From IMG/VR virus record IMGVR_UViG_2597490227_000004: DNA of 7,690 nt; one strand, 5' to 3'. The notes under the pieces are model-generated. The model saw nothing but the letters and a program-made list of their open reading frames with translations, had not been told where the DNA came from and did not search any database. Of the stretch, positions 4,753 to 5,268 are shown in pieces. The stretch is from a virus. Lineage: Duplodnaviria > Heunggongvirae > Uroviricota > Caudoviricetes. Position 1 is the stretch's first letter. Every line of letters starts with the position of its first letter. The translations under genes were made by a program, and so were the position numbers.

Positions 4753-5049
4753 TTATACCTCTGAATCAATATCAGCCTGATGGTGAGCAATGGTTTCAAC
4801 TATGTACCGGATGTGTTCTGCCATGCGCTCCTGAAACTCAACATCGTCATCAAACGCACGGGTAATGGCTTTTTTGCTGGCCCCGTGGCGTTGTAAATGA
4901 TCGATGCATAGCGATTCAAACAGGTGCTGGGGCAGGCCTTTTTCCATGTCGTCTGCCAGTTCTGCCTCTTTCTCTTCACGGGCGATCTGCTGGTAGTGAC
5001 GCGCCCAGCTCTGAGCCTCAAGACGATCCTGAATGTAATAAGCGTTCAT
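4753..5049 (-). CDS. gam: Gam, short form (GamS, 98 aa), RecBCD inhibitor
   Basis: Translation [60 protein letters not shown]... matches lambda GamS by recall. AGGAG RBS upstream of ATG 5047-5049. Confidence 0.95.
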
Positions 5050-5124
5050 GGCTGAACTCCTGAAAATGGCTGTGAAAATATCGCCCGCGAAATGCCAGGC
5101 TGATTAGGAAAACAGGAAAGGGGG

Positions 5125-5268
5125 TTAGTGAATGCTTTTGCTTGATCTCAGTTTCAGTATTAATATCCATTTTTTATAAGCGTCGACGGCCTCACGAAAC
5201 ATCTTTTCATCGCCAATAAAAGTGGCGATAGTGAATTTAGTCTGGATAGCCATAATTGTTTGATCCAT
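5125..5268 (-). CDS. kil: Kil (47 aa), host cell-division inhibitor
   Basis: From ATG 5266-5268 the translation is [47 protein letters not shown], with AGGAGT RBS. The 89-aa version in the ORF track is an upstream extension. Confidence 0.85.

Follow-up and report, generated by a model that had tools for sequence, protein, structure and literature searches.

An Extra T Upstream of gam in a Lambdoid Phage Is Probably an Old and Widespread Spacer Polymorphism

Introduction

Early Gam purifications yielded a subunit of roughly 16.5 kDa. Published work on lambda Gam distinguishes two isoforms, GamL and GamS (PMC5218532, PMC11610958). GamS by itself is seen bound to RecBCD in a cryo-EM structure, and it sensitises Escherichia coli to ciprofloxacin to about the same degree as GamL does, with GamL slightly more effective in some Klebsiella pneumoniae strains (PMC5218532). 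The stretch of viral DNA analysed here (the window; 7,690 nt, IMG/VR record IMGVR_UViG_2597490227_000004) carries a gam gene in which the ATG corresponding to the GamL start is one nucleotide out of frame with the GamS start. Is the additional nucleotide a sequencing error, a fresh mutation that has inactivated one isoform, or a natural variant of the spacer in front of gam?

Results

Organization of the gam region

The window is lambdoid phage DNA from the recombination region of the pL operon and contains exo, bet, gam, kil, cIII, and ea10. The order of the open reading frames (ORFs) matched the annotation of lambda and of ev017, with exo at 3285-3965 and the bet ORF at 4747-3962 on the minus strand; gam (4753-5049, minus strand; ATG at 5049-5047 and stop codon at 4755-4753) was located next to bet and exo, as in a pL recombination module. 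On its other side, kil (5125-5268, minus strand; 47 codons plus stop, with its ATG at 5268 and a TAA at 5127-5125) was identified by Pfam family PF06301 Lambda_Kil at 66.6 bits and by the lambda annotation, and cIII (5401-5237, minus strand) was identified by Pfam Lambda_CIII. The cIII mRNA thermoregulator was also found, as a full-length match to the Rfam family Lambda_thermo (88.5 bits) at 5356-5414 on the minus strand. The annotated start of kil varies across public records (5125-5394 of the window, minus strand), giving proteins of 47 residues (lambda, phage 434, and one PGAP record), 68 residues (another PGAP record), or 89 residues (Stx2 phage 86 and BP-4795), the last of which overlaps cIII in a different frame; in some phages, the kil stop codon TAA is changed to TAC, which lengthens Kil.

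The 98-residue product of the gam ORF scored 211.7 bits against Pfam PF06064 (cut-off, 25), with residues 1 to 98 on profile positions 1 to 98 of 98, and was identical at 94 of 98 positions to the solved GamS chains 5MBV_A and 2UUZ_A (E = 3.5e-60). A search of NCBIfam gave no match for GamS, Kil, or the 50-residue product of the upstream ORF described below, so the assignment to the Gam family rests on Pfam and PDB similarity. At 96% identity to lambda GamS, the protein is predicted to be a RecBCD inhibitor.

Between kil and gam lies an intercistronic spacer of 75 nt (5050-5124, minus strand), which carries the gam ribosome-binding site and is untranslated in the Gam frame in this phage. A Shine-Dalgarno sequence, AGGAG, was read at 5057-5061 on the minus strand, 7 nt before the gam ATG; the AGGAG upstream of gam is annotated as a ribosome_binding_site in the phage 434 record OL657226, and the motif (T)nCAGGAG or a related one is kept upstream of divergent gam genes. 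The spacer contains two homopolymers that vary in length among relatives, namely, a run of four T (5063-5066, minus strand), 1 nt upstream of AGGAG, and a run of five C (5120-5124, minus strand), directly past the kil stop codon, which has four to six C in relatives.

A one-nucleotide difference from lambda

The spacer region of the window was aligned with those of lambda (NC_001416), ev017, Stx2 phage 86, and BP-4795. Lambda GCTATTTCAGG corresponded to GCCATTTTCAGG in the window, a difference consisting of one extra T and a linked T-to-C change; at the run itself, the lambda sequence was GCTA-TTTCAGG, and lambda GCTATTT corresponds to GCCATTTT in the four-T allele. The substituted C, at 5068 on the minus strand, lies two bases upstream of the T-run. 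The initial annotation was right about the extra T and about the run of four T, which reads as four A on the plus strand, although it placed that run at 5061-5064. The difference is a comparison with a reference and carries no statistical signal, so chance is irrelevant to it.

The coordinates, when re-read, gave the same spacing as had been proposed from the sequence: the upstream ATG (5170-5168) and the GamS ATG (5049-5047) are 121 nt apart (5170 - 5049), not 120. GamL would begin at an ATG 40 codons upstream that is in frame with gam and followed by an open frame; here, the frame of the upstream ATG ends after 50 codons inside gam, as also stated initially, and the ORF list gives it as 5018-5170 on the minus strand, with its end at 5020-5018, 30 nt inside gam. 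Residues 1 to 33 of this ORF are those of the lambda GamL extension, except for Leu25 (Pro in lambda), and the sequence thereafter is out of frame. The first 46 nt of the ORF are overlapped by kil, its ATG is made by the Lys-Trp codons AAA-TGG of kil, and no AGGAG-like sequence was found 5 to 13 nt before that ATG. The one extra T breaks the 138-residue GamL ORF; as had been concluded initially, the 98-residue GamS is the only form that can be made intact. GamS is encoded with a canonical ribosome-binding site.

In other respects, the locus agreed with lambda gam (PF06064; 2UUZ and 5MBV), including the position between kil and bet, the 94 identical residues of 98, the ribosome-binding site, and the rest of the spacer. 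The two differ in that lambda has TTT with the linked T and an in-frame upstream ATG (138-residue GamL), whereas the window has TTTT with the linked C and a dead-end ORF of 50 residues.

Distribution of the two alleles

Alleles were counted with a 67-nt probe centred on the T-run. Among the 180 deposited phage genomes with a match, the exact window allele was present in 79, including BP-4795, Stx2 phage 86, Stx2 phage I, EDL933-Stx, and Min27, and the exact lambda allele was present in 81, including 434, VT2-Sakai, and SfI. The locus was carried by 3,112 of 5,426 complete E. coli genomes, and as the exact best match in complete E. coli replicons, the window allele was found in at least 1,422, versus 745 for the lambda allele. 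The 121-nt spacing was shared by BP-4795 and Stx2 phage 86, and a stretch of 671 nt around the T-run was 100% identical in the independent records ev017, PhiR57_1, and PhiR63_2. The phages Stx2 phage 86, BP-4795, Stx2 phage I, EDL933-Stx, ev017, and PhiR63_2 all have the identical allele with four T and the linked C, and in each, as in the window, an ORF of 153 nt accompanies one of 297 nt; in Stx2 phage 86 the two are already annotated as "gam alternate" (153 nt) and "gam" (297 nt). The window is another carrier, with no material difference from these Stx-converting and lambdoid gam loci.

Contigs from IMG/VR were fetched with an anchor inside gam and are therefore unbiased with respect to the spacer (n = 138); 93 had GCC with TTTT, 44 had GCT with TTT, 1 had an unrelated variant, and none was recombinant. 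In an enlarged set, linkage was again perfect, with 121 loci having C and four T and 118 having T and three T. The complete linkage of run length to the neighbouring substitution implies two old haplotypes rather than recurrent slippage or base-calling noise, and it runs counter to the initial suggestion of ongoing slipped-strand variation in the T-run. Outgroup spacers had two, three, or four T and are not alignable in length, so either three T or four T may be ancestral.

A scan of the genome collection returned mostly lambda DNA contaminating unrelated assemblies, and nine loci were informative. Assemblies of unrelated organisms (loci L129 to L137; Shewanella, Pseudomonas, Kitasatospora, Neobacillus, and Oceanobacillus) contained contigs, mostly of low coverage, that reached about 48.5 kb, with several close to the full length of lambda, and that carried a gam of the lambda type with 96% identity to GamS of the window; these look like lambda DNA contamination of public genomes.

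Conservation of the 98-residue Gam protein

Homologues with 69 to 75% identity (from Citrobacter, Klebsiella, Raoultella, Pseudescherichia, and an Escherichia species) and homologues with 81 to 89% identity from E. coli prophages all started at the methionine aligned with Met1 of GamS, and no upstream in-frame ATG was found among these homologues (69 to 89% identity), except for an ATG-ATG doublet at the start of one of them (L163). The divergent homologues in Citrobacter, Klebsiella, Raoultella, and Salmonella prophages resemble the window in that they have 97 to 99 residues from this methionine, and in several the upstream sequence has AGGAG after a T-rich stretch. They differ in having recE-like or kilR-like upstream genes, and in several the recE-like gene runs into gam with an ATGA overlap, leaving no spacer. 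Of the 120 best clusters in a search of 5.8 billion proteins, 96 had 97 to 99 residues and only 3 had 138, all 3 being at least 96% identical to the query. A 297-nt gam is called by PGAP even for an in-frame O157:H7 allele and is likewise given for the in-frame allele in the curated phage 434 record (CPT annotation).

Two unusual forms were also seen. A gam homologue with 81% identity in an E. coli and a Shigella flexneri chromosome (L141 and L142, around 1501) lacks an ATG where the start would align (CAG AGC GCT TAT CCG) and may be a pseudogene or have a different start. Rare Kil-GamL fusion ORFs of 171 residues (proteins P0002, P0009, and P0010; 2 to 10 member sequences each) apparently arose from one-base indels in the overlap of kil and the GamL frame, and they may be assembly errors.

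Reading frame of the spacer

Spacing was counted over the full IMG/VR and metagenome set. In about half of the IMG/VR gam loci, a kilR-like gene (PF27398) replaces kil upstream of the same 75-nt spacer, and these loci have neither the "GamL" ATG nor any other in-frame start; 94 loci were of this type, 84 of them with four T. The mosaic joint between kilR-type and kil-type loci falls exactly on the stop codon of the upstream gene (CACTAA; for example, L168, L169, and L171, and L158 at 208-498). Among kil-type loci, a spacing of 121 nt was found in 39. Two four-T loci had a spacing of 120 nt through a change in the C-run region, yet their frame meets an in-frame stop after 21 codons.

Among the 158 three-T loci, the 120-nt spacing and the open frame were retained in 135; the remaining 23 had no GamL ORF, either through a spacing of 119 nt that arose by a change in the C-run past the kil stop codon (13 loci) or because the upstream gene was not kil (10 loci). 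A variant that creates a stop in the "GamL" frame was present in the kilR-type class. When the C/T-rich spacer of lambda was shuffled with the kil overlap fixed, the frame stayed open in 48% of trials, so the 138-codon ORF of lambda is not surprising by itself.

Polymorphisms were counted under strict class definitions, with a neutral expectation of 26% synonymous changes. The ratios of synonymous to non-synonymous changes in the classes without a GamL ORF were 2:5 and 7:15, near the neutral expectation. In the in-frame class (135 loci), 5 changes were synonymous and 4 were non-synonymous (p = 0.057), and among non-singletons the numbers were 5 and 2 (p = 0.015). This apparent excess is weak, not significant, and inconclusive because the synonymous changes were all transitions, because 5 third-position changes of 9 gave a p of about 0.15 by our own estimate against a uniform expectation, and because 23 of the 158 three-T loci are without the ORF anyway. 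The spacer thus does not, in general, appear to be under reading-frame constraint.

These counts bear directly on the idea that GamL is functional and selected in lambda-type phages and that the four-T haplotype has lost it, the loss being tolerated because GamS suffices. The retention of the ORF in 135 three-T loci, the weak synonymous excess confined to the in-frame class, and published descriptions of two isoforms, with expressed GamL active (PMC5218532), are all in its favour. Against it, that excess does not reach significance when transition bias and codon position are taken into account, the 23 exceptions are found within the three-T loci themselves, the extension is absent from all homologues below about 95% identity, the ATG is derived from kil codons with no Shine-Dalgarno sequence in front of it, and nearly half of the shuffled spacers keep an open frame by chance. 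We therefore regard such a loss as unlikely. A more specific proposal, that one-base changes in the T-run (5063-5066) and the C-run (5120-5124) switch a lineage-specific GamL on and off and that a selected role in lambda-type phages has been given up here, draws on the same weak excess in the in-frame class and on the slight difference of GamL from GamS in one published assay, and it likewise seems to us unlikely. The premise implied initially, namely, that GamL is the normal state and that this phage is defective, is also doubtful; the in-frame arrangement is the minority across relatives.

The upstream ORF, recoding, and sequencing error

If the 50-codon ORF were itself functional, it could encode a small protein, or its translation could regulate gam, with ribosomes running on across the gam ribosome-binding site and modulating it. 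Its end, 30 nt inside gam, means that its translation would cross the gam start, and the ORF is annotated as a gene in Stx2 phage 86. It had no match in Pfam or NCBIfam, however, and it has no Shine-Dalgarno sequence, is missing in the kilR-type half of the relatives that share the spacer, and shows a prevalence of non-synonymous changes in its frame (2 synonymous versus 5 non-synonymous). A function for this ORF is thus very unlikely.

The structure of the spacer RNA was considered as well. The minimum free energy of the spacer was -17.6 kcal/mol (z = -0.91), which was not significant, and Rfam had no match in the spacer. A scan for a terminator-like consensus found 3 sites versus 1.0 expected, one of them a weak hairpin inside the spacer, GCCTGGCATTTCGCGGGC followed by GATATTTTCA (5083-5100, minus strand). 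The hairpin has a stem of 5 bp, and natural variants break this stem without compensating changes; a function for it is not supported by these sequence comparisons. The tL2 terminator cluster, which we take to belong to the kil-gam region of lambda, is one to which the hairpin could possibly belong; no terminator is annotated at its position in the lambda records of the collection. In the 5' arm of the hairpin, the middle base of a CC(N)GG site (CCTGG at 5097, minus strand) was found as all four nucleotides among relatives; with T or A at this base, the site is CCWGG, the target of Dcm methylation.

Could the four-T allele nonetheless give rise to a GamL-like protein by programmed +1 ribosomal frameshifting or by transcriptional slippage at the T-run? 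With C next to the TTT codon, tRNA-Phe would be able to re-pair in the +1 frame, and upstream of its ATG the Gam frame stays open over 18 codons. Yet the next codon in the zero frame is CAG, which is common and neither a stop nor a rare and slow codon, no Shine-Dalgarno-like stimulator was found upstream of the T-run, and the spacer has no stable structure by the z score given above. To our knowledge, a run of four T is too short for slippage by RNA polymerase. The identical four-T spacer, moreover, occurs in the 84 loci with no upstream ATG and hence no upstream ORF, which argues that the sequence is not maintained for recoding, and a review of frameshifting contains no mention of gam (PMC5009743). 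Recoding at this site is therefore highly improbable.

The remaining idea, raised initially because the difference sits in a homopolymer run, that the true sequence has three T and a 138-residue ORF and that the fourth T is a sequencing or assembly error, can practically be dismissed, since the same allele is present in 79 deposited phage genomes and at least 1,422 complete E. coli replicons, since the independent records ev017, PhiR57_1, and PhiR63_2 are identical over 671 nt, since early records that were presumably Sanger sequenced (BP-4795, Stx2 phage 86, and Stx2 phage I) have it too, and since an error would not yield complete linkage to a neighbouring substitution.

Discussion

The extra T is best explained as an old, widespread, and apparently harmless polymorphism of the kil-gam spacer, neither an error nor a fresh inactivating mutation, and we put the probability of this reading at roughly 85%. 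On this reading, Gam would be translated from the ATG at 5049 by means of the AGGAG 7 nt upstream, a start that we infer from the sequence. The upstream ATG would be in frame with gam in lambda-type alleles by happenstance, giving the 138-residue "GamL", and the inherited haplotype, with C and TTTT in place of T and TTT, would put that ATG out of frame in this phage and in most of its relatives. The 50-codon ORF would then be inert.

The allele is already known and annotated; it is a common natural variant, and its presence in the window is an ordinary finding. A literature search returned nothing relevant on the conservation of GamS among lambdoid phages, the 98- and 138-residue forms, tL2 terminators, or Stx2 phage 86. 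The Gam of phage Mu is an unrelated, Ku-like protein despite its name. No sign of Mu Gam, P22 Abc2, or T7 gp5.9 was seen in the window; the latter two share their functional target, RecBCD or DNA ends, with lambda Gam and are unrelated in sequence (PMC5218532, PMC9836394).

No new biology follows from the finding, nor does it settle any open question. For annotation, it means that automated pipelines should not mark gam here as frameshifted or pseudogenised. For the family, it means that the 138-residue ORF of lambda is missing from most relatives, the well-studied Stx phages included, and that the 98-residue Gam is the only universal form across natural lambdoid phages and prophages, which bears on the statement that Gam has two isoforms.
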